This document shows positions 2,896-40,961 of a stretch of DNA of 64,000 bases, piece by piece. The stretch covers positions 96,001 through 160,000 of the IMG/VR virus record IMGVR_UViG_3300030060_007423, one strand, 5' to 3'. Below the pieces are notes generated by a model. That model saw only the letters and a list, made by a program, of their open reading frames with translations. It was not told where the DNA came from and searched no databases. How positions within the stretch are numbered: position 1 is the first letter of the stretch; every line of letters begins with the position of its first letter. The position numbers and the translations under genes are program-made. The stretch comes from a virus.

Positions 2896-3045
2896 ATGAT
2901 AAATTGGATAAACGGCTTTGATGCCGGAAATAAAAAAGAAAAGTACTACATTGAATTTAGAGTAGGTACTTTTACAGTATTAGAAATGAAGTGGGAATCT
3001 AAGAAATTTAGATTTATGATATTTAATTTGGGATTTGAAATATGA
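2896..3045 (+). CDS. Small hypothetical protein (49 aa)
   Basis: AAGGAG SD; MINWINGF...LGFEI; overlaps next start. Confidence 0.55.
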   Translation: MINWINGFDAGNKKEKYYIEFRVGTFTVLEMKWESKKFRFMIFNLGFEI

Positions 3046-6000
3046 AAAAGTTATTATTTTTATTGCTATTATTACCATCGGTTATATTAGCACAAAACAG
3101 TTGGATAAACATACAATTATTAACAGATGACTATCCAGAAGAAACTTCTTGGACTATAACACCTCCAGGTGGTTCTCCAATTATTGCTCAGTCTGATTCT
3201 ATAATGACAGACTTAACATTATATGATACAACAATTGCTGTAGGTGGAACTATAGTTGTTAATTTATACGACGAGTATGGAGATGGTTTAGGTGGATTTA
3301 ATGGTTCACCAGAAGGTTGGTTTTTAATTCAAAATGATTGTCAAGATACATTATTATATGTGGCAGGAGATTTTGGAGCTTTATATACTGACACTTTAAC
3401 AATAGCACCTTGTGCACCTCCAGTATCTGGATGTACTGATGTAAATGCTACCAATTATGATTCACTCGCCACAGCCGATGATGGTTCTTGTACCTATCCT
3501 CCATGTGGCGGTTTAGTTTTTAGTAATGCATATCAACAATGTCAACCAAATGGTCAAGCATTGGCTATATTTGAATGGGAAACAGATGCATACAATCCAA
3601 CTTGTGAAGTAGTCAAAGTATGGATTAGCAATGAAAACGGTTTAGGACCATTACAGTTTCCAGGTTCATGGCCATCAGGAGGACCTCATAACTTTGCATT
3701 TAATGCAGGTCCAGGACAAATGCCACCAAATTGGTCAGAAGAGTTTTATTGTCAAGTAGAATTTGCAGATGGTTCATTATCAGATACTATTGCATACACA
3801 CCAACACCATGTATTCCAGGTTGTACTGACCCAACACAAATAGCATATAATCCTTGGGCTACAATAGATGATGGTTCATGTAGTGGAACAACTTGTGACA
3901 CAAATACACAATATCAAATATCCATTTCAATAACATTAGATAATTGGCCAGGTGAAACAAGCTGGCAATTTGTTGATGGTTTAGGTAATACATTTGACTA
4001 TCCAGTAGGAACATATGATTTTAATGATATAGGACAAACTTATACTTACGCATTCTGTGTAGACCAAAATGCAGCTTTTGAAATGATTATCAATGATGAT
4101 TATGGTGATGGTATGGCTGGTTCAACATCAGGTGGAACAATGGATGGTGAAATTTTTATATATGATTGTTCAGGAGATACTATTTGGTATATGGACAATC
4201 CTGGTTTTGGAACTGTATTATATTCAGGTCCACAAACAGCAACACCTTGTCCTACTATTCCAGTAATAGACGGATGTACAGATGATGATTATGTTGAGTT
4301 TAATCCTCAAGCAAATAATGATGATGGTAGTTGCTTAACATTACATACTTACGGTTGTACAGACCCAGCAGCGTTTAACTATGATCCTTCAGCAACTATG
4401 ATGGACTTAACACCAGATTGTAATTACGAACTATGGATTGGAGATGCTGGCGGTGATGGTTGGGGTAATTCATTTATAGGTGTATATCAAAATGGTATTA
4501 ATCTTGGAACATATACAATGGGACCAGGTAATTATCAACAAACCTTTAATGTAATTTTAGACCCAGGAGTTCCAGTAGAAGTATTTTATTTTGAAGTAGG
4601 TGGACCACAACAACCACCAGAAGAGGTACAATTTCAAACTTGGCATAATTCATTTAAGTTAACAAATGCAGATGGTGTTGAACTAATGTATGAAGGACAG
4701 AATCCATTTGCAAATAATGGTCAAGGAGCACTTCAAGGATTTGGAGCACCATTCTTTACAAAATATGTAGCAGTTCCATTTTGTGGAAATACTTGTATTC
4801 CAACAGTATTGGGTTGTATGGACTCATTATCTGTAAACTTTGACCCAAATGCAAATGTAGATGATGGTTCTTGTATTCCTGAAATTTTAGGATGTACTAA
4901 CCTTTTAGCATTTAACTATGACCCAAATGCAACTTTGGATGATGGTTCATGTATTCCAGTTGTAAATGGATGTATGGATTCATTGGCATATAATTTTAAT
5001 CCTTTAGCTAATACACCAGATGGAAGTTGTGTATTTTTAGGATGTACAGATAATTTAGCTTGTAATTATGATGCAATTGCAAATGTAGATAATGGAGGTT
5101 GTACTTACCCAGCTCAATATTACGATTGTTATGGAGCATGTATAAATGATACTGATGGTGATGGTGTTTGTGATGAGTTGGAAGTTTTAGGATGTACGGA
5201 TCCATTATCAACTAATTTTAATCCTGCAGCTACAGATGACGATGGTACTTGTATACCAATTATTTATGGATGTACTGACCCAACAATGTATAACTATAGT
5301 GTAACTGCTAATACAGATGATGGTAGTTGTGTACCGTACATTTATGGATGTACTGACCCAACAATGTTTAATTATGATGTAACTGCAAACACTGACGATG
5401 GTACATGTATACCTATTGTTATTGGTTGTATGGATGTAACTATGTGGAACTATGATCCTTTAGCTAACACATCATCAGGAAATTGTATTCCATTCATATA
5501 TGGTTGTATGGACCCAACGATGTTTAATTATGATCCGTTGGCGAATACAGATAATGGTACATGTGAGCCATTTGTTTATGGATGTACTGACCAAACTGCA
5601 CTTAACTTTAACCCATTAGCAAATACTTTAGATAATAGTTGTTGTTATATTGCAGGATGTACTGACGCATCAGCACTTAATTATGATCCAGACGCATGTT
5701 ATGATGACAATTCATGTATAACAATTGTAACAGGTTGTACTGATGTAACGGCTTACAACTATAACCCAGCTGCAAATGTTTCAGATTCAAGTTGTTTATA
5801 TGATGCAGGTTGTTATGGTGGACCAGGAGTTCCATATTGGTTGAATGATGGATGTTATGCTTGGGTAATTGATGTTGATGATTATTGTTGTACAAATGAT
5901 TGGGATGTAAACTGTCAATCAATGTATGATTATTGTGAACAAGGTTGGCCAGTGTCAACTGAAGAATTATCTGGTTCAGGTACAATATTGGTATATCCAA

Positions 6001-6191
6001 ACCCAACGCCAGATGTATTAAATATTGATACACGATTAGATGTTGAAGTTGAATTATATGATATGATGGGAAGAAAACTTATCGTAACAACTGATAAGAG
6101 AATAGACATATCTAAATTTGATTCTGGAGTATACAACATGATAATTATATACGACAACCTTAGATTTAGTAAAAGGGTAATAAAACAGTAA
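3042..6191 (+). CDS. Secreted Cys-rich repeat protein with T9SS type A C-terminal sorting domain
   Basis: Signal peptide; about 16 GC[TM]D..AxNYDPxANxDDGSC repeats; C-terminal VYPNP...YDMMGR...SGVY...KRVIKQ. Confidence 0.85.
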   Translation: MKKLLFLLLLLPSVILAQNSWINIQLLTDDYPEETSWTITPPGGSPIIAQSDSIMTDLTLYDTTIAVGGTIVVNLYDEYGDGLGGFNGSPEGWFLIQNDCQDTLLYVAGDFGALYTDTLTIAPCAPPVSGCTDVNATNYDSLATADDGSCTYPPCGGLVFSNAYQQCQPNGQALAIFEWETDAYNPTCEVVKVWISNENGLGPLQFPGSWPSGGPHNFAFNAGPGQMPPNWSEEFYCQVEFADGSLSDTIAYTPTPCIPGCTDPTQIAYNPWATIDDGSCSGTTCDTNTQYQISISITLDNWPGETSWQFVDGLGNTFDYPVGTYDFNDIGQTYTYAFCVDQNAAFEMIINDDYGDGMAGSTSGGTMDGEIFIYDCSGDTIWYMDNPGFGTVLYSGPQTATPCPTIPVIDGCTDDDYVEFNPQANNDDGSCLTLHTYGCTDPAAFNYDPSATMMDLTPDCNYELWIGDAGGDGWGNSFIGVYQNGINLGTYTMGPGNYQQTFNVILDPGVPVEVFYFEVGGPQQPPEEVQFQTWHNSFKLTNADGVELMYEGQNPFANNGQGALQGFGAPFFTKYVAVPFCGNTCIPTVLGCMDSLSVNFDPNANVDDGSCIPEILGCTNLLAFNYDPNATLDDGSCIPVVNGCMDSLAYNFNPLANTPDGSCVFLGCTDNLACNYDAIANVDNGGCTYPAQYYDCYGACINDTDGDGVCDELEVLGCTDPLSTNFNPAATDDDGTCIPIIYGCTDPTMYNYSVTANTDDGSCVPYIYGCTDPTMFNYDVTANTDDGTCIPIVIGCMDVTMWNYDPLANTSSGNCIPFIYGCMDPTMFNYDPLANTDNGTCEPFVYGCTDQTALNFNPLANTLDNSCCYIAGCTDASALNYDPDACYDDNSCITIVTGCTDVTAYNYNPAANVSDSSCLYDAGCYGGPGVPYWLNDGCYAWVIDVDDYCCTNDWDVNCQSMYDYCEQGWPVSTEELSGSGTILVYPNPTPDVLNIDTRLDVEVELYDMMGRKLIVTTDKRIDISKFDSGVYNMIIIYDNLRFSKRVIKQ
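4810..5800 (+). repeat. Tandem ~26-aa GCTD-NY-DDGSC coding repeats
   Basis: Periodic GGATGTACTGAC/GGTTGTATGGA DNA units. Confidence 0.85.
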
Positions 6192-17851: not shown

Positions 17852-17958
17852 AGAAAAATTAAGAAATAGCATAATAAAGTGTATAAATGCTATTAGCATA
17901 GCTTAAATAAATCTCCATATTTTACTTTATATTAGTTGAATTTTATATTTATTAGTAT

Positions 17959-18204
17959 ATGAAAGTAATAACTCATAGATTCAAAAGAAGTGTAGCGGAT
18001 GATAGTGATATTGTCTACTTAGTAAATTTAGTAGATTTCACTGGCAGACCGCTTGAAAGTTATATTGCAGAAACAACAGAAGAAAGAAATAATAAGTCAA
18101 ATAGTTTATTAAAAAGACATAATGTCAATGTTGTACAACACAATCAAGGTTTTAGTATTAGGACAGAAAATTCTACAGAGATTGTAGATAATGTTACTAT
18201 CTAA
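17959..18204 (+). CDS. Hypothetical protein
   Basis: ORF directly after ATATTTAT motif. Confidence 0.55.
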   Translation: MKVITHRFKRSVADDSDIVYLVNLVDFTGRPLESYIAETTEERNNKSNSLLKRHNVNVVQHNQGFSIRTENSTEIVDNVTI

Positions 18205-18339
18205 ATAATCAATATTTTATGGTATAAAATTTTTTTAATTCAAGATTTTTAGTTATATTTATAACTTAAAGAAATAACTCCACTATTAGGAGCTATGCAT
18301 ACAATTTAGAATAGAGGTTAGAAAAAAAGAGGAAAATAC

Positions 18340-18753
18340 ATGAGAAATTTAATTTTAACAATTGCTTTAGTATGTGGATTAGTTTTCACATCACAAGCAC
18401 AAAACGCTAAAGGCGACTGGTATGTTGGAACTGGTGATATTGCTAATATCGCTTGGACTGACTGGGCAATAAACCCAACAATTGGATATGCAGTACATGA
18501 CAACCTTATGGTTGGCGCATCTGTATCACAAGCAAATGAAGAAGCTGATTTAGATATGGATTTCCACGCTAGATATTTCTGGAACGGATATTTCGGATAT
18601 GTAGCGACTGATGGACTTAGCACTGATGGCATGCTATTAGGTGCTGGTAAAATGTTTACACTACGAAAAGGTGTCTATGTAGACCCTAAAGTAGTATATA
18701 ACTCAGGAGATAAGACAACGAACCTACAGTTAGGTTTCGGTCTTACATTTTAA
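18340..18753 (+). CDS. Small outer-membrane beta-barrel protein (Bacteroidota type)
   Basis: Signal peptide; AQNAKGDWYVG; C-terminal LGFGLTF. Confidence 0.75.
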   Translation: MRNLILTIALVCGLVFTSQAQNAKGDWYVGTGDIANIAWTDWAINPTIGYAVHDNLMVGASVSQANEEADLDMDFHARYFWNGYFGYVATDGLSTDGMLLGAGKMFTLRKGVYVDPKVVYNSGDKTTNLQLGFGLTF

Positions 18754-18814
18754 TTATTAATTAAACCCTCTAATCTAAATTATTTTATTAACATTAACAA
18801 AGAAGGAGAAAACA

Positions 18815-19039
18815 ATGGATTCAGTAATTAAATACGTAACAGGTTTTTTTGGTGGATTGTTATCAATTATGATGGCAGTTTTACCAGTTACTATCGTTTG
18901 GCAAGTATTGACAGGCGGAAATGTATTTGGAATGGATGTTGTTGCTAATTTATCTGCTCTTGTAGAATCACTAGGTAATGGTGGTTTTGTAGGACTAGTA
19001 GTATTGGTAATAATTGCGTCATTCTTTACTAAGAAATAG
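18815..19039 (+). CDS. Small membrane protein
   Basis: Two hydrophobic helices; AAGGAG SD. Confidence 0.65.
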   Translation: MDSVIKYVTGFFGGLLSIMMAVLPVTIVWQVLTGGNVFGMDVVANLSALVESLGNGGFVGLVVLVIIASFFTKK

Positions 19040-19062
19040 TTTTATTTGATAATAATCTAGTT

Positions 19063-19099
19063 AAACGGCTCTGAAGAAATTTGGAGCCGTTTTATTTTT
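19063..19099 (+). terminator. Intrinsic terminator
   Basis: AAACGGCTC/GAGCCGTTT stem followed by T-rich tract. Confidence 0.8.
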
Positions 19100-19128
19100 A
19101 TTTGTCAATTATTTTTGTTATATTTATT
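19096..19128 (+). promoter_or_regulatory. Bacteroidota sigma70-like promoter
   Basis: TTTGTCAA...GTTATATTTA; near-identical architecture at ~43180 and ~62470. Confidence 0.6.
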
Positions 19129-19544
19129 AAAAAGAAAATCAAACTATGGAAACAATAGCAATTATTTTATTTGGAGCAGCTTGCTTCGCAATGGGAATGT
19201 ATGTAACTACTCAGATAAGTTCATGGATAGACAGTAGGATACAACATAAAAAGTTTATGAAAAACTTGGAAAACTTTGATAAAGACAAAGATGGAAATAA
19301 AAGCGTTTAATAAAGGATTAAAGGTTATAAGTAGTTGTAAGAATTATTCTCAAATTAGAGGAGCTTATAATTATGTACATAACTATAGAATCTTGTTTGG
19401 TAAAACAAAATTATGGAAAGACCTCTATAATTTTTGTGGTAGAAAACGAGAAATGTTAGGAGACTATGATGGAAGATAAGTATTGGGTAACAACAACTAC
19501 AGCTGGTGATTACGAAGTTGTATATCATATAGTGGAGAATTAAT

Positions 19545-20289: not shown

Positions 20290-20895
20290 ATGAATAAAAT
20301 AGATAGAAATAAATTAAATCCAAACAAGGTTGTTGGATTTACAGCAGGAAATTTTGACCTACTACATCCAGGTTATATTTATACATTTGAAGACGCAAGA
20401 AAACATTGTGATCACTTCATTGTATTTTTACAGAGAGACCCTTCAGCAACACGGTTTACTAAATATAAACCTGTGATACCATTGTATGAAAGATATAGGG
20501 CATTGATGTCAATACAATATATTGATGAAGTATACATTTATCAAACTGAGGAGGAACTTTATGAATTAATTAAATTCTTCAAACCAGATGTAAGAATCCT
20601 TGGAGAAGATTATATTGGTAAACCTTGCACAGGAGATGATCTTCCTCCAAAAATTATTTATACAAGTAGAGCTCATGGTTGGTCAACAACTAAGTTAAAG
20701 GATTTAATTACAAAGCAAACTGTAAAACAAAATCCAGATATACTTAATAATGAAAAAGATGAAGAAGACATGAGTGATGAGGTTGATAGAGAAGCAGAAT
20801 GGTTAATTGACCAACATAATAGAAATAGACCAGCTGAAGAACATATTGATAACATTGATGATTTGCCACAGAATAATCAAGCATTTGGAGATTAA
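20290..20895 (+). CDS. Glycerol-3-phosphate cytidylyltransferase-like protein (TagD/RfaE-II fold)
   Basis: GNFDLLHPGY, LGEDY and WSTT motifs. Confidence 0.8.
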   Translation: MNKIDRNKLNPNKVVGFTAGNFDLLHPGYIYTFEDARKHCDHFIVFLQRDPSATRFTKYKPVIPLYERYRALMSIQYIDEVYIYQTEEELYELIKFFKPDVRILGEDYIGKPCTGDDLPPKIIYTSRAHGWSTTKLKDLITKQTVKQNPDILNNEKDEEDMSDEVDREAEWLIDQHNRNRPAEEHIDNIDDLPQNNQAFGD

Positions 20896-20897
20896 TT

Positions 20898-21221
20898 ATG
20901 AAACATCCGTATTATGACAGTGATAGAAAAAAGAGAACAGAAAGATTTGCAATGGCAGCATGTTCCTTTAGCATAATTGGAATAGTTATCTTAATGATAG
21001 TTGCTTCATTCCTAAATTCTTGTAAAGATGCTCCAGAACCAACATTAGGCGATTTTCTTTCAGGTGATGAAAAAAATTTATTAGATACATTACAATCTAT
21101 AATACCAAATGGTGTTGGAATAATTGAATATGAAGATGGTACATGTGATAGTATAAGATACACTGAATCTGATGAAGATGTAAAGTGGATTGGAAATGAT
21201 GGGGTAGAGTTTTATGATTAA
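20898..21221 (+). CDS. Membrane or lipoprotein
   Basis: TM segment ending LNSC. Confidence 0.5.
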   Translation: MKHPYYDSDRKKRTERFAMAACSFSIIGIVILMIVASFLNSCKDAPEPTLGDFLSGDEKNLLDTLQSIIPNGVGIIEYEDGTCDSIRYTESDEDVKWIGNDGVEFYD

Positions 21222-21724: not shown

Positions 21725-21805
21725 TGTTAATAACTTTTTTAGCTTTTTTTAGAAAAAAGTCTCCCAAAAATTTTTTTTTCCCAATAATTCTAGTTATATT
21801 TATAT
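21725..21805 (+). promoter_or_regulatory. Repeated early-promoter cassette, copy 1
   Basis: TGTTAATAACTTT...TTTCCCAA-N6-TAGTTATATTTATA. Confidence 0.8.
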
Positions 21806-21830: not shown

Positions 21831-22286
21831 ATGATAATATACATTGACTTAGACGGTGTACTTGCTGACTTTCAAAAGGCTGCATCACAACATCCAGATT
21901 ATGGAACAAAAGGTTTCAGACCAGATTTAACATTAGATTTTTCTAAATTTGATATAATTCCTGGAGCAAAAGATGCGGTAAAACAAATACTAGATATGGG
22001 ACATGATGTTTATATTGCAAGCACGGCTCCTTGGGACAATCCAAATGCTTGGACTCAGAAGAGAGAATGGGTAGGAAAAAACTTTCCAGAACTAAAAAGA
22101 AAAGTATTTTTAACTCACCACAAAAACCTGCTTAAAGGTGACATTCTTATTGATGATTCAACATACAGAGGACAAACTGAGTTTGAAGGAGAATTTATGA
22201 AGTTTGACCCTAGCATTGGTTACGATTGGGATTTCATGGTTAAGTCAATTGATAATATGACTAAGTTGTTAAAAATAATTTGTTAA
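21831..22286 (+). CDS. 5'(3')-deoxyribonucleotidase (NT5C, HAD)
   Basis: IDLDGVLADF, ST.PW, K..W and LIDD motifs. Confidence 0.88.
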   Translation: MIIYIDLDGVLADFQKAASQHPDYGTKGFRPDLTLDFSKFDIIPGAKDAVKQILDMGHDVYIASTAPWDNPNAWTQKREWVGKNFPELKRKVFLTHHKNLLKGDILIDDSTYRGQTEFEGEFMKFDPSIGYDWDFMVKSIDNMTKLLKIIC

Positions 22287-25539: not shown

Positions 25540-25593
25540 TTTTTTTATATCAAAAAAAATGGTTATATTAATTAAAAATTTAGAATAAAAGTT

Positions 25594-25968
25594 ATGATAA
25601 ACGAGAGAAGATACGAACAGTTTAAGAAGTACAAAAGAACAGTATTAAGAATGTTTCCACATGCAGAGACAAAGATAAGACCAAATGGCAAATTTACTGT
25701 TGAAGATGGCTTTGGTAGATGTATATTAAGACATTACCCTGATGTTGCAATGTGTGACAATATTTTCAATGCATGGAAAAATATTACAATTGTAAAGCAT
25801 TGGGATAGAATTGAACAACGAAACATTAAGAAGTCAAGAATTGATGTTAAAAATGTTGTAGGAAATACATCAAACATGCCAAGAAAAGAAGGCTGGGAGT
25901 ATCAAGATAATAATATATCAAATACTGGAGAAGTATATGATGAAGCAAATCAATATTCAAACGATTAA
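25594..25968 (+). CDS. Hypothetical protein
   Basis: ORF behind promoter at ~25540-25572. Confidence 0.6.
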   Translation: MINERRYEQFKKYKRTVLRMFPHAETKIRPNGKFTVEDGFGRCILRHYPDVAMCDNIFNAWKNITIVKHWDRIEQRNIKKSRIDVKNVVGNTSNMPRKEGWEYQDNNISNTGEVYDEANQYSND

Positions 25969-29137: not shown

Positions 29138-29187
29138 TATAATTGGTTCGGATAGAAATTAAAAATTAAAACAAAAAAACGTCGCTT

Positions 29188-30393
29188 ATGAAAAATGTAA
29201 TCTTAAAAGCTGGTCTTAACGAGAGTGGTAAACCAGTATTGACTGACAAGGTTGGCAATCAGTTTGAATGTCCTGTAAAGGATAAAGCCAACAAACAAAA
29301 ATTAACGTGGGCTGTTAAAAAAGAAGCCTATGTAAAAGTAATAATGAAGGAGGGCGGAGCCATGTCCTACTCAGTATCTAATAGTAGTACTGAAAAGGAT
29401 TGGACTAAAGATGCCACGTCTATATTGACAGACCAGTGGTTGAATAAACCTGCTGCTAATGTACCTGCTGAACAGGCTGAGGTAATGGCATTCATTCAGA
29501 AATCTCCTGAGTTAAAACCAGATACTCTTAAGATGCAAGACCTTAAATGGAAATATCTTGTTAGGTCTGCAATGAGAGGTAAAAATATTATGATGACTGG
29601 TCCTGCAGGATGTGGTAAAACTATGGCAGCTAAAACTGTTGTGAACGCATTAGACAGACCAGAATTTTATTTCAACCTTGGGGCAACTCAAGATCCTAGA
29701 GCTACCTTAATTGGTAATGTCCACTTCAATAAAGAGAGTGGTACGTTCTTCTCTGAATCAATGTTTGTGAAAGCAATACAGACTGAGAATGCTGTAATAC
29801 TCATGGATGAGCTTTCACGTGCTCACCCCGAGGCTTGGAATATATTAATGACTGTATTAGACGAAGGTCAGAGATACTTAAGGTTAGATGAAGCTGATGG
29901 CTCTCCAACTATTAAAGTAGCTCCAGGTGTAACATTTATCGCTACTGCCAATATAGGTAATGAATATACAGCGACAAGAGTTATGGACCGAGCGTTATTA
30001 GACAGGTTTATTATTGTAGAGATGGATACTCTAAATGCTTCTGAGGAGTTTGAGTTGTTAACAAAACTATTTCCTAATGTGGATACTAAAACAGTTAACG
30101 CCATATCTGAAATTGCTCATGCTACTAGAGTTGAGGTTAAGAGTGAAGTTGCGAGAATCTCTACTTCTATTTCTACCAGAGCTTGTGTTGAAATGACTAG
30201 CCTTGTTTACGACGGGTTTAGTTTAACAGAAGCTGCTGAGGTTATTATGTATCCACAATACGATGATGCGGGTGGAGCTGATAGCGAAAGAACATTCGTA
30301 AAACAACTTGTACAGAAATTCTGTGACGATGGTACCGATGAAGATTTATTCAACACTGAAGATGTTGACGGTGCTGATGACAACCAGCAATAA
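29188..30393 (+). CDS. MoxR/CbbQ/CobS-type AAA+ ATPase
   Basis: GPAGCGKT, LMDELSR, IATAN and DRALLDRF motifs. Confidence 0.92.
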   Translation: MKNVILKAGLNESGKPVLTDKVGNQFECPVKDKANKQKLTWAVKKEAYVKVIMKEGGAMSYSVSNSSTEKDWTKDATSILTDQWLNKPAANVPAEQAEVMAFIQKSPELKPDTLKMQDLKWKYLVRSAMRGKNIMMTGPAGCGKTMAAKTVVNALDRPEFYFNLGATQDPRATLIGNVHFNKESGTFFSESMFVKAIQTENAVILMDELSRAHPEAWNILMTVLDEGQRYLRLDEADGSPTIKVAPGVTFIATANIGNEYTATRVMDRALLDRFIIVEMDTLNASEEFELLTKLFPNVDTKTVNAISEIAHATRVEVKSEVARISTSISTRACVEMTSLVYDGFSLTEAAEVIMYPQYDDAGGADSERTFVKQLVQKFCDDGTDEDLFNTEDVDGADDNQQ

Positions 30394-30409
30394 GCGACGA
30401 TTGCTAAGA

Positions 30410-32799: not shown

Positions 32800-33195
32800 A
32801 TGAAAGACAACACAGAGAAATGGAAGTATAGTTATCCATATCAGACAAGGATAGCAACTATTGAACAGGAATATGGTGAACTAGGACAACAGGTACCTGC
32901 AGGATTCTACTTCAGGGATGGCGAGATAATTCGAGCTCTGCTCGATTTTGTGAAACAAAGTGGACCCTGTACATGGACTGAAATGAGCATGGAATACCAC
33001 TACCTGTTCACAAACATGGAATATCATCCAGTCAATCACCGTGGTGGTAGTTTCAGTAGTGGTCACTATCGTAGCCTAATGACACCAAGACGTAGAAGGA
33101 TAGGCAATGGCAATTATGAATATATCCGTAAAGGAGATGATGGTCTATACCGATACCATACACATGCTCTGGGTTATAGTGGTGTTAATTGTTAA
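32800..33195 (+). CDS. Hypothetical protein
   Basis: ORF. Confidence 0.6.
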   Translation: MKDNTEKWKYSYPYQTRIATIEQEYGELGQQVPAGFYFRDGEIIRALLDFVKQSGPCTWTEMSMEYHYLFTNMEYHPVNHRGGSFSSGHYRSLMTPRRRRIGNGNYEYIRKGDDGLYRYHTHALGYSGVNC

Positions 33196-34634: not shown

Positions 34635-34710
34635 TAACTTTTTTACATATTATATGAAAATAACTATGAAAATATTTTTATTTCCCAAATATTCTAGTTA
34701 TATTTATATA
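34629..34710 (+). promoter_or_regulatory. Early-promoter cassette, copy 7
   Basis: TGTTAATAACTTT...GAAAATAACTATGAAA...TTTCCCAA...CTAGTTATATTTATA. Confidence 0.8.
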
Positions 34711-40387: not shown

Positions 40388-40495
40388 TTACTATAGTTTG
40401 CACAGTTTTTTCAGTATATTAATTAAAGGTTATATAATGGTTATATTAAGTGTACTGAGTAGGCACAAAATTAAAATTATCTAAGGAGATTAATT

Positions 40496-40930
40496 ATGGG
40501 AAATTATTTTTTACATGAGCGGTTGTTTCCAACCGACTTATTTTTCAAAAACTTTTTTGATACACAAACTGAGTTTCAATCGTTTGCAGATGTTAAGCCA
40601 CAATATCCAGTTGATATTATGGTAACAGATTATGCACTAACGTTTGATATTGCATGTGTTGGTTTGGACAAAAAAGATATAACATTAGACGTTACTGATA
40701 ATACCTTACGGGTTATCTATGAAAAACCAAACATTGAATCAAATCCATCTGATGAAGATGCAGGTGAATATATCCATAGAGGTATTACTCGGAAGAGTTT
40801 TAATATGGGTTGGAAAATTGCACCACGGTATGATTTGAGTCAAATAGAAGCAGTTATGAAAAACGGATTGTTAAGTATAACAATTCCATTGTTTGAAGAA
40901 GCAAAACCAAAAACAATTAAAATTAAATAA
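40496..40930 (+). CDS. hsp20: Small heat-shock protein Hsp20
   Basis: YPVDI, YIHRGI..KSF and A.MKNGLLSITIP motifs; C-terminal IKI. Confidence 0.92.
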   Translation: MGNYFLHERLFPTDLFFKNFFDTQTEFQSFADVKPQYPVDIMVTDYALTFDIACVGLDKKDITLDVTDNTLRVIYEKPNIESNPSDEDAGEYIHRGITRKSFNMGWKIAPRYDLSQIEAVMKNGLLSITIPLFEEAKPKTIKIK

Positions 40931-40961
40931 ATAGTGTTTTACTCAGTACACTTTTTTTATT

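Follow-up and report, generated by a model that had tools for sequence, protein, structure and literature searches.

The window analyzed here is a 64,000-nt stretch comprising bases 96001 to 160000 of a 170.8-kb viral record (IMGVR_UViG_3300030060_007423), with about 32% G+C and nearly all of its ORFs on the + strand. The ORF at 18340 to 18753 (+) encodes a 137-aa protein with a signal peptide, a predicted small beta-barrel, and the C-terminus ...GFGLTF. The match of this protein to PF13505 (OMP_b-brl) was weak and below the cut-off (E 0.0046). AlphaFold (AF2) modeling with 27 homologues gave a small meander beta-barrel with a pLDDT of 72.7, whose Foldseek matches were weak and included OmpW, Opa60, and AlkL as well as avidins and lipocalins. 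It is plausible from these features that the product is outer-membrane-protein-like, and we refer to it as the OMP-like protein. A second ORF follows at 18815 to 19039 (+), preceded by an AGGAG Shine-Dalgarno (SD) sequence at 18804 to 18808 (+), and encodes a 74-aa predicted membrane protein with no match in Pfam or PHROGs; the PHROGs search also returned no match for the OMP-like protein or its two neighbors. A homologue of the 74-aa protein is encoded next after the OMP-like gene in 31 of the 34 loci examined, and the two proteins may act together at the host envelope. A search of Rfam with positions 17900 to 19400 gave nothing real, and no deposited phage genome matched the region at the DNA level. 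Across the whole record, SD-like motifs (GGAG/GAGG/AGGA) occur at positions -18 to -4 in 44% of genes compared to 4 to 6% in control windows, a frequency worth noting because the phage is attributed to Bacteroidota, a group in which most genes are without SD sequences. The window also encodes, at 3042 to 6191, a 1049-aa protein with a C-terminal T9SS sorting domain (Por_Secre_tail, E 1.3e-9), a Bacteroidota-specific secretion signal that is here found on a phage gene and fits a Bacteroidota host.

Upstream of the OMP-like gene lies a promoter-like element at 18224 to 18263 (+), consisting of a T-rich upstream part, a CAA-type box, and GTTATATTTATA (GTTATA at 18252). It belongs to a consensus of about 40 nt that stands 15 to 90 nt before about 25 genes of this genome, all on the + strand, and that is made up of a T-rich upstream part and a CCCAA/GTCAA box followed by TAGTTATATTTATA, ending in GTTATATT(T/A)A. 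Copies are found in the window at 18224 to 18263, 19090 to 19128, 21765 to 21805, and 34669 to 34710 and at about 20 more places in the record, and DNA similarity revealed another two. This repeated element is probably the main promoter class of the phage, and transcription from the copy before the OMP-like gene would start at about 18266. A leader hairpin at 18274 to 18296 (+), with 7 pairs, one mismatch, and a 7-nt loop, was found by a stem-loop consensus scan, which listed it on the other strand; in the closest relative, locus L004, a different hairpin was read by eye at this position. The OMP-like ORF has an SD-like GAGG at 18329 to 18332 (+), 7 nt before its ATG. Beyond the second ORF, a strong intrinsic terminator occupies 19063 to 19102 (+), with a hairpin at 19063 to 19092 (13-bp stem and 4-nt loop) and a T-rich tail, and is predicted to end the transcription unit.

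The two complementary segments that concern us are 18303 to 18317 (AATTTAGAATAGAGG; +), which lies in the leader just downstream of the leader hairpin and about 37 nt from the predicted transcription start, and 18767 to 18781 (CCTCTAATCTAAATT; +), which lies in the intercistronic spacer and is followed by a U-rich stretch. One is the reverse complement of the other over 15 positions but for a single A/A mismatch in the middle (14/15), exactly as a sequence-only reading of the window had described. A distance of 22 nt separates the 5' arm from the ATG (18340), and the 3' arm begins 13 nt past the stop codon (18751 to 18753). When the RNA from 18280 to 18800 was folded, the MFE structure and the centroid alike contained the helix and left the SD unpaired. 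The mean predicted pair probability of the arms is 0.95, and the duplex between the two flanks has an energy of about -16 to -19 kcal/mol. The same reading had spoken of complementary 5' and 3' UTRs, a description that we amend, given that the 3' arm is intercistronic and would come to lie at the end of a transcript only through processing. Between the 3' arm and the second ORF, neither a promoter nor a terminator was found, the first strong terminator being that at 19063 to 19092, and the helix thus brackets the first cistron of what is predicted to be a bicistronic unit, with both arms on the coding strand within one predicted transcript. A 13/15 copy of the 5'-arm sequence occurs at 25577 to 25591 of the window, in the leader of the promoter-proximal gene at 25594 to 25968; this gene has no complementary partner past its end, and the copy may be a shared leader module or a chance occurrence.

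One explanation for such a pair is a chance match in AT-rich flanks. We evaluated this with a contiguous-match scan (+1/-2, ungapped) of the 60-nt flanks of 206 crude ORFs of the record, using mismatched upstream/downstream flank pairs as the control. The OMP pair scored 12, a score reached by 0.15% of the mismatched pairs, and 4 genes were found at this level compared to 0.3 expected, with a per-gene chance of about 0.0015. The mean score was identical for cognate and mismatched pairs (6.32), and the signal was weaker with wider flanks (120/100 nt), for which 7 genes were found compared to about 2 expected. An RNAduplex energy scan evaluated by sampling showed no general excess, with a cognate mean of -11.6 kcal/mol compared to a null of -12.0 kcal/mol; the OMP pair is unexceptional by energy in this genome, and only the hsp20 gene stands out. 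The top contiguous matches around 21831 to 22286 and 32800 to 33195 are AT-only, derive from the palindromic part of the repeated promoter, and were rejected as helices; a further AT-only top match lies at genome positions 20677 to 21015. The AT-rich palindromic tail of the promoter is thus a source of spurious gene-flanking inverted repeats. The energy scan without excess and the two AT-only matches among the top four are what a chance origin would lead one to expect, and the low per-gene probability speaks against it. The single-genome statistic for the OMP helix is suggestive only, and our case therefore rests on comparative data. These scans also bear on the proposal, made from the sequence alone, that enclosure of a gene between complementary flanks is a recurrent mRNA architecture: the excess over control pairs exists in the tail of four genes but not in general, and among the other ~200 genes, pairing between cognate flanks is not better than between noncognate ones. 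Most promoter-proximal genes are without a flank helix. The design is specific to a few genes and is not genome-wide.

We scanned viral contigs and recovered 62 loci with a homologue of the OMP-like gene (49 to 87% identity). Every one of the 27 distinct loci in the promoter-bearing clade that contains the window has a helix in the corresponding position, and the arms of these loci fall into about ten different sequence classes, with 5' arms such as CGAAAGCATGTT, GAGAGCATT, AATTAGAGAGCTC, AATGAAGAGC, GTGAGTTT, AGCGCGCA, and GCGCGATG. The recurrence of the helix with other sequences at every locus of the clade leaves chance with next to no credibility as an explanation. Across the clade, the 5' arm ends 21 to 48 nt before the ATG, and the 3' arm begins 0 to 21 nt past the stop codon (13 to 21 nt for the ungapped cores). 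In most relatives the 5' arm was read by eye about 11 to 23 nt after a GGTTAT-type motif, which would put it very close to the 5' end of the RNA or right at it. Homology among the 3' arms centers on a GCTCTC core and that among the 5' arms on GAGAGC, and pair-preserving variants of these cores include GAAAGC/GCTTTC, TAGAGG/CCTCTA (the window), GTGAGT/ACTCAC, and GCGCGC/GCGCGC; an A-U to G-C switch separates the window from L004. MAFFT alignment of the whole locus or of the flanks alone failed to register the 5' arms, and the compensatory changes, at least eight double, pair-preserving changes among the helix loci, were read from partly manual alignments. A single-sided change in locus L025 produces a U-G wobble, and 1-nt bulges occur as well.

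Given that the 5' arms were out of register in MAFFT, we used an alignment-free comparison of cognate and noncognate flank pairs. The cognate duplex energies of 13 representatives summed to -271 kcal/mol, compared to a permuted mean of -186 kcal/mol (sd 16), and none of 20,000 permutations of the flank pairings was as low as the cognate sum. When the predicted RNAs of about 550 nt were folded, the long-range helix had a pair probability of 0.7 to 1.0 in all 16 representatives. The contiguous helices range from 6 to 15 bp, with 9 to 10 bp in the largest class and only 6 to 9 bp in some relatives. Covariation in homologues, which the sequence-only reading had put forward as a check, is therefore present, both as arm classes that differ between loci and as cognate-specific pairing, and shows that the complementarity has been kept by selection via compensatory change across a diverse clade. 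At the helix edges, 23 G-U pairs were counted compared to 32 A-C mismatches, so there is no G-U enrichment and no strand-specific signature that would tell RNA complementarity from DNA complementarity. From the covariation and the predicted folds, we consider that the arms very probably pair in the RNA and close the OMP-like gene into a loop, which agrees with the earlier idea that the start and the end of the gene are brought together.

The remaining branches of the family provide an internal contrast, in which gain of the helix accompanies gain of the gene's own promoter, an SD, and a widened spacer. The sister clade (support 0.92) and the outgroup have no flank complementarity at the OMP-like gene; in these loci the gene lies within about 15 nt of the preceding gene, without a promoter motif, and its leader is A-rich and lacks an SD. 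All helix loci, in contrast, have the promoter motif, an AGGAG-type SD, and a spacer of 58 to 76 nt to the next ORF that holds the 3' arm, compared to a spacer of 23 to 28 nt in the helix-free loci. The helix loci group together on the protein tree, where the support for their node is weak (0.44). Since the gene for the 74-aa membrane protein adjoins the OMP-like gene downstream in both clades, the 3' arm must have arisen within an existing gene pair. We also considered that the OMP-like gene had been dropped into the loop of a pre-existing hairpin, and we rejected this scenario because the two genes on either side of the 3' arm are already neighbors in the helix-free clade.

The same design had been reported from the sequence at an AAA+ gene and at hsp20, and complementary flanks are indeed found at both. 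The hsp20 ORF (40496 to 40930) is flanked by a perfect 14-nt complement at 40448 to 40461 (+) and 40940 to 40953 (+), which reaches about 19 pairs when extended and appears in the MFE fold as well as in the centroid; seven T in a row follow the 3' arm. Among six relatives, four retain these arms, whereas the other two have unrelated ones in that position, with a U-G wobble in one case. The AAA+ gene, in which AAA_5/MoxR domains were found, encodes a MoxR-type ATPase and has a 10-bp complement between 29180 and 29189 (+), a segment that takes in the first two bases of the start codon, and 30390 to 30399 (+), which overlaps the stop codon. Loci L045 (OMP-like) and L070 (hsp20) are parts of one 10-kb contig (IMGVR_UViG_3300030419_005427), on which no more than about 3 kb separates the two genes, and each gene has a flanking helix of its own. 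Given that they are 22 kb apart in the window, these units sit in a shuffled region.

Such shuffling raises the possibility of a feature that acts at the level of DNA, whether as the ends of a mobile cassette, as recombination or inversion sites, as paired protein-binding sites, or through template-switch correction that would keep the arms complementary with no role for the RNA. The upstream neighbors of the gene differ between groups of relatives, the OMP-like and hsp20 genes are adjacent on the contig just described, and the lack of a G-U excess at the helix edges would be expected of this explanation as well. The arms, however, differ between orthologous loci and among the three genes of this genome, unlike the sites of a transposase, an invertase, or a repressor, and their orientation relative to the downstream gene is constant in 31 of 31 loci. 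In 20 loci that share one common upstream gene, six arm classes are found, so the arms have changed in place; variable arms, a fixed orientation, and several arm classes in one context are not features of the terminal repeats of transposons, invertons, or cassettes. Both arms also always lie inside the predicted transcript, and the 3' arm sits between genes that are already adjacent where the helix is absent. We therefore regard a DNA-level role as very improbable.

We also considered a long-range terminator or attenuator, in which the 5' arm would form the upstream half of a terminator stem, and the 3' arm with the U-rich tract after it would end a part of the transcripts after the first cistron. 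U-rich stretches do follow the OMP 3' arm, though only in the window and in L004, and the run of seven T after the hsp20 3' arm has a counterpart of six T in L070. Most relatives of the OMP locus, however, are without a U tract; in its place, a conserved small hairpin is found together with an A-rich stretch. The loop would measure 449 nt where a short one is called for, and a stem with a loop of this size is a kinetically poor terminator; the terminator scan itself places the terminator at 19063. Premature termination at the helix is for these reasons an account to which we assign little likelihood.

The closest parallel that we found is the hbs mRNA of B. subtilis, in which a 14-nt, -19 kcal/mol interaction joins the leader to the 3' UTR and in which single and compensatory mutants show that the pairing limits cleavage by endonucleases and influences decay from the 5' as well as the 3' end (Braun, Durand and Condon 2017, PMC5737220). 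In both systems, a leader segment of about 14 to 15 nt just past a hairpin has its complement a short way beyond the stop codon of a small gene, the energies are similar (about -16 to -19 kcal/mol here), and the SD is free. The hbs mRNA is monocistronic, with its 3' arm just upstream of the terminator and overlapping a mapped RNase Y site (PMC5737220), whereas the 3' arm described here is followed by a second cistron and is about 280 nt away from the terminator. In addition, the pairing in hbs was shown by mutants, and in our case it is seen as natural covariation in a Bacteroidota phage system. Pairing of the 5' and 3' UTRs across a whole ORF is also described for the icaR mRNA of S. aureus (Ruiz de los Mozos et al. 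2013, PMC3868564). The likeness lies in the pairing of both ends of one mRNA across its ORF; the OMP 5' arm differs in ending 22 nt before the ATG (21 to 48 nt in relatives), with the SD open. The icaR 3' UTR, by comparison, is said to pair with the Shine-Dalgarno region, to block translation, and to invite RNase III. The pair at 29180 to 29189 and 30390 to 30399 of the MoxR-type ATPase gene is nearer to icaR in this respect than the OMP helix is.

We consider it probable, by comparison with hbs, that the arms form a selected long-range RNA helix of the same kind and that this helix stabilizes or insulates the first cistron. Transcription would run from the promoter of the repeated type through the OMP-like ORF and the second small ORF to the terminator at 19063 to 19092. 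Once the polymerase had passed the first stop codon, the 3' arm could pair with the leader segment and close the first cistron into a loop of about 450 nt. The footprint of a terminating ribosome reaches about 10 nt past the stop codon, and that of an initiating ribosome extends about 20 nt or more 5' of the ATG. Since both arms fall just beyond these stretches, the helix could be compatible with translation; the stem would leave the ribosome-binding site open and might persist while the gene is translated. By analogy with hbs, the helix would hide the single-stranded leader from the endonucleases that initiate decay, would act as a 3' barrier to exonucleases after cleavage farther downstream, and would allow the cistron to fold independently of its neighbors. 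The first cistron would in this way gain a functional life that is longer, or less dependent on context, than that of the rest of the transcript.

The same geometry could serve translation. A loop that holds the stop codon at a spatial distance of a few tens of nucleotides from the gene's own ribosome-binding site might hand terminating ribosomes over for re-initiation or might set the ratio of the first to the second cistron. The stem just outside the ribosome footprints on both sides and the free SD would suit such a role, as would the coincidence of helix gain with an SD and a widened intercistronic spacer. The spacing, however, is variable (21 to 48 nt on the 5' side and 0 to 21 nt on the 3' side), and no feature of the sequence tells a role in translation from a role in stability. 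Recycling through a closing helix is not known from bacteria. We consider translation control or ribosome hand-over unlikely.

Among the ideas first attached to this locus was processing by RNase III. If RNase III of the host, or another double-strand-specific nuclease, cut the stem, the OMP cistron would be freed from the longer RNA. A helix that brackets a functional unit within a longer transcript has the geometry of the processing stems of 16S and 23S rRNA, and Bacteroides carries RNase III, which served as the control in our search for the enzyme; no RNase III gene was found in the phage record. RNase III usually needs roughly two helical turns, and the rRNA stems that it cuts are much longer than 20 bp. 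The contiguous helices at the OMP-like gene, which unlike the rRNA stems enclose a translated ORF, are below two turns at 6 to 15 bp and measure only 8 to 10 bp in many relatives. RNase III processing is accordingly unlikely as a function common to these loci, and we give it a low probability overall. The genes of the phage record lend no support to circularization of the message, raised in the same reading: neither an RtcB nor a dedicated RNA ligase was found among them.

Stabilization or insulation of the first cistron, the reading that we favor, can also be set beside structures known from intercistronic spacers and from phages. The REP element in malE-malF and the RNase III hairpins of phage T7 are local hairpins between cistrons. 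As with these, a structure in the spacer could shield the upstream cistron from 3' exonucleases and lead to unequal expression of an operon; the difference here is that the partner strand lies 450 nt away in the leader, such that the two ends of the cistron are tied together. The PeSL cassettes that Arbiol et al. are said to have described in 2010 reportedly combine an early promoter and a stem-loop in the hyperplastic regions of T4-type phages, as repeated local promoter/terminator modules that act as recombination sites. The genes described here are similarly small accessory genes of a T4-like phage with their own repeated promoter in a shuffled region. The likeness ends with the promoter, which is repeated, unlike the arms, which are unique to each gene and complementary across it.

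A 2025 preprint (PMC12697547) cites only three reports of end-to-end pairing in mRNA, hbs and icaR among them. Long-range pairing of the ends of bacterial-type mRNAs has been documented experimentally for very few messages. The natural variation at one phage gene offers the equivalent of many compensatory mutants, and the presence of helices at three genes of this phage suggests that the device is more common than the literature shows. If the helix does stabilize or insulate, it would provide phages with a simple, transferable way to tune accessory genes that move between contexts, and it could be adopted as a design rule for synthetic operons. A bolder form of this idea is a portable device in which one ORF of a polycistronic phage RNA is made autonomous: ribosomes would load and terminate without melting the helix, the ends would be hidden from nucleases, and terminating ribosomes would be returned to their own start. 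Such a device would be the bacterial-type equivalent of the closed-loop mRNA of eukaryotes, and phages would have evolved it repeatedly; we offer it as speculation with a small chance of being correct in full.

The spacer downstream of the OMP-like gene contains further small structures in the relatives. Directly after the 3' arm, most relatives, but not the window, have a small hairpin of the GGCAATTTTGCC type followed by ACA(A/G)AA. In loci L005 to L038, this hairpin lies about 35 to 50 nt past the OMP stop codon (for example, L011:3442-3458) and occurs exactly once per locus, and its stem covaries (GGCA/TGCC compared to TGCA/TGCA). In many relatives, another hairpin, of 5 bp, is found ahead of the 3' arm, after the stop codon. 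Combined with the long-range helix, these small hairpins would form a multi-helix junction.
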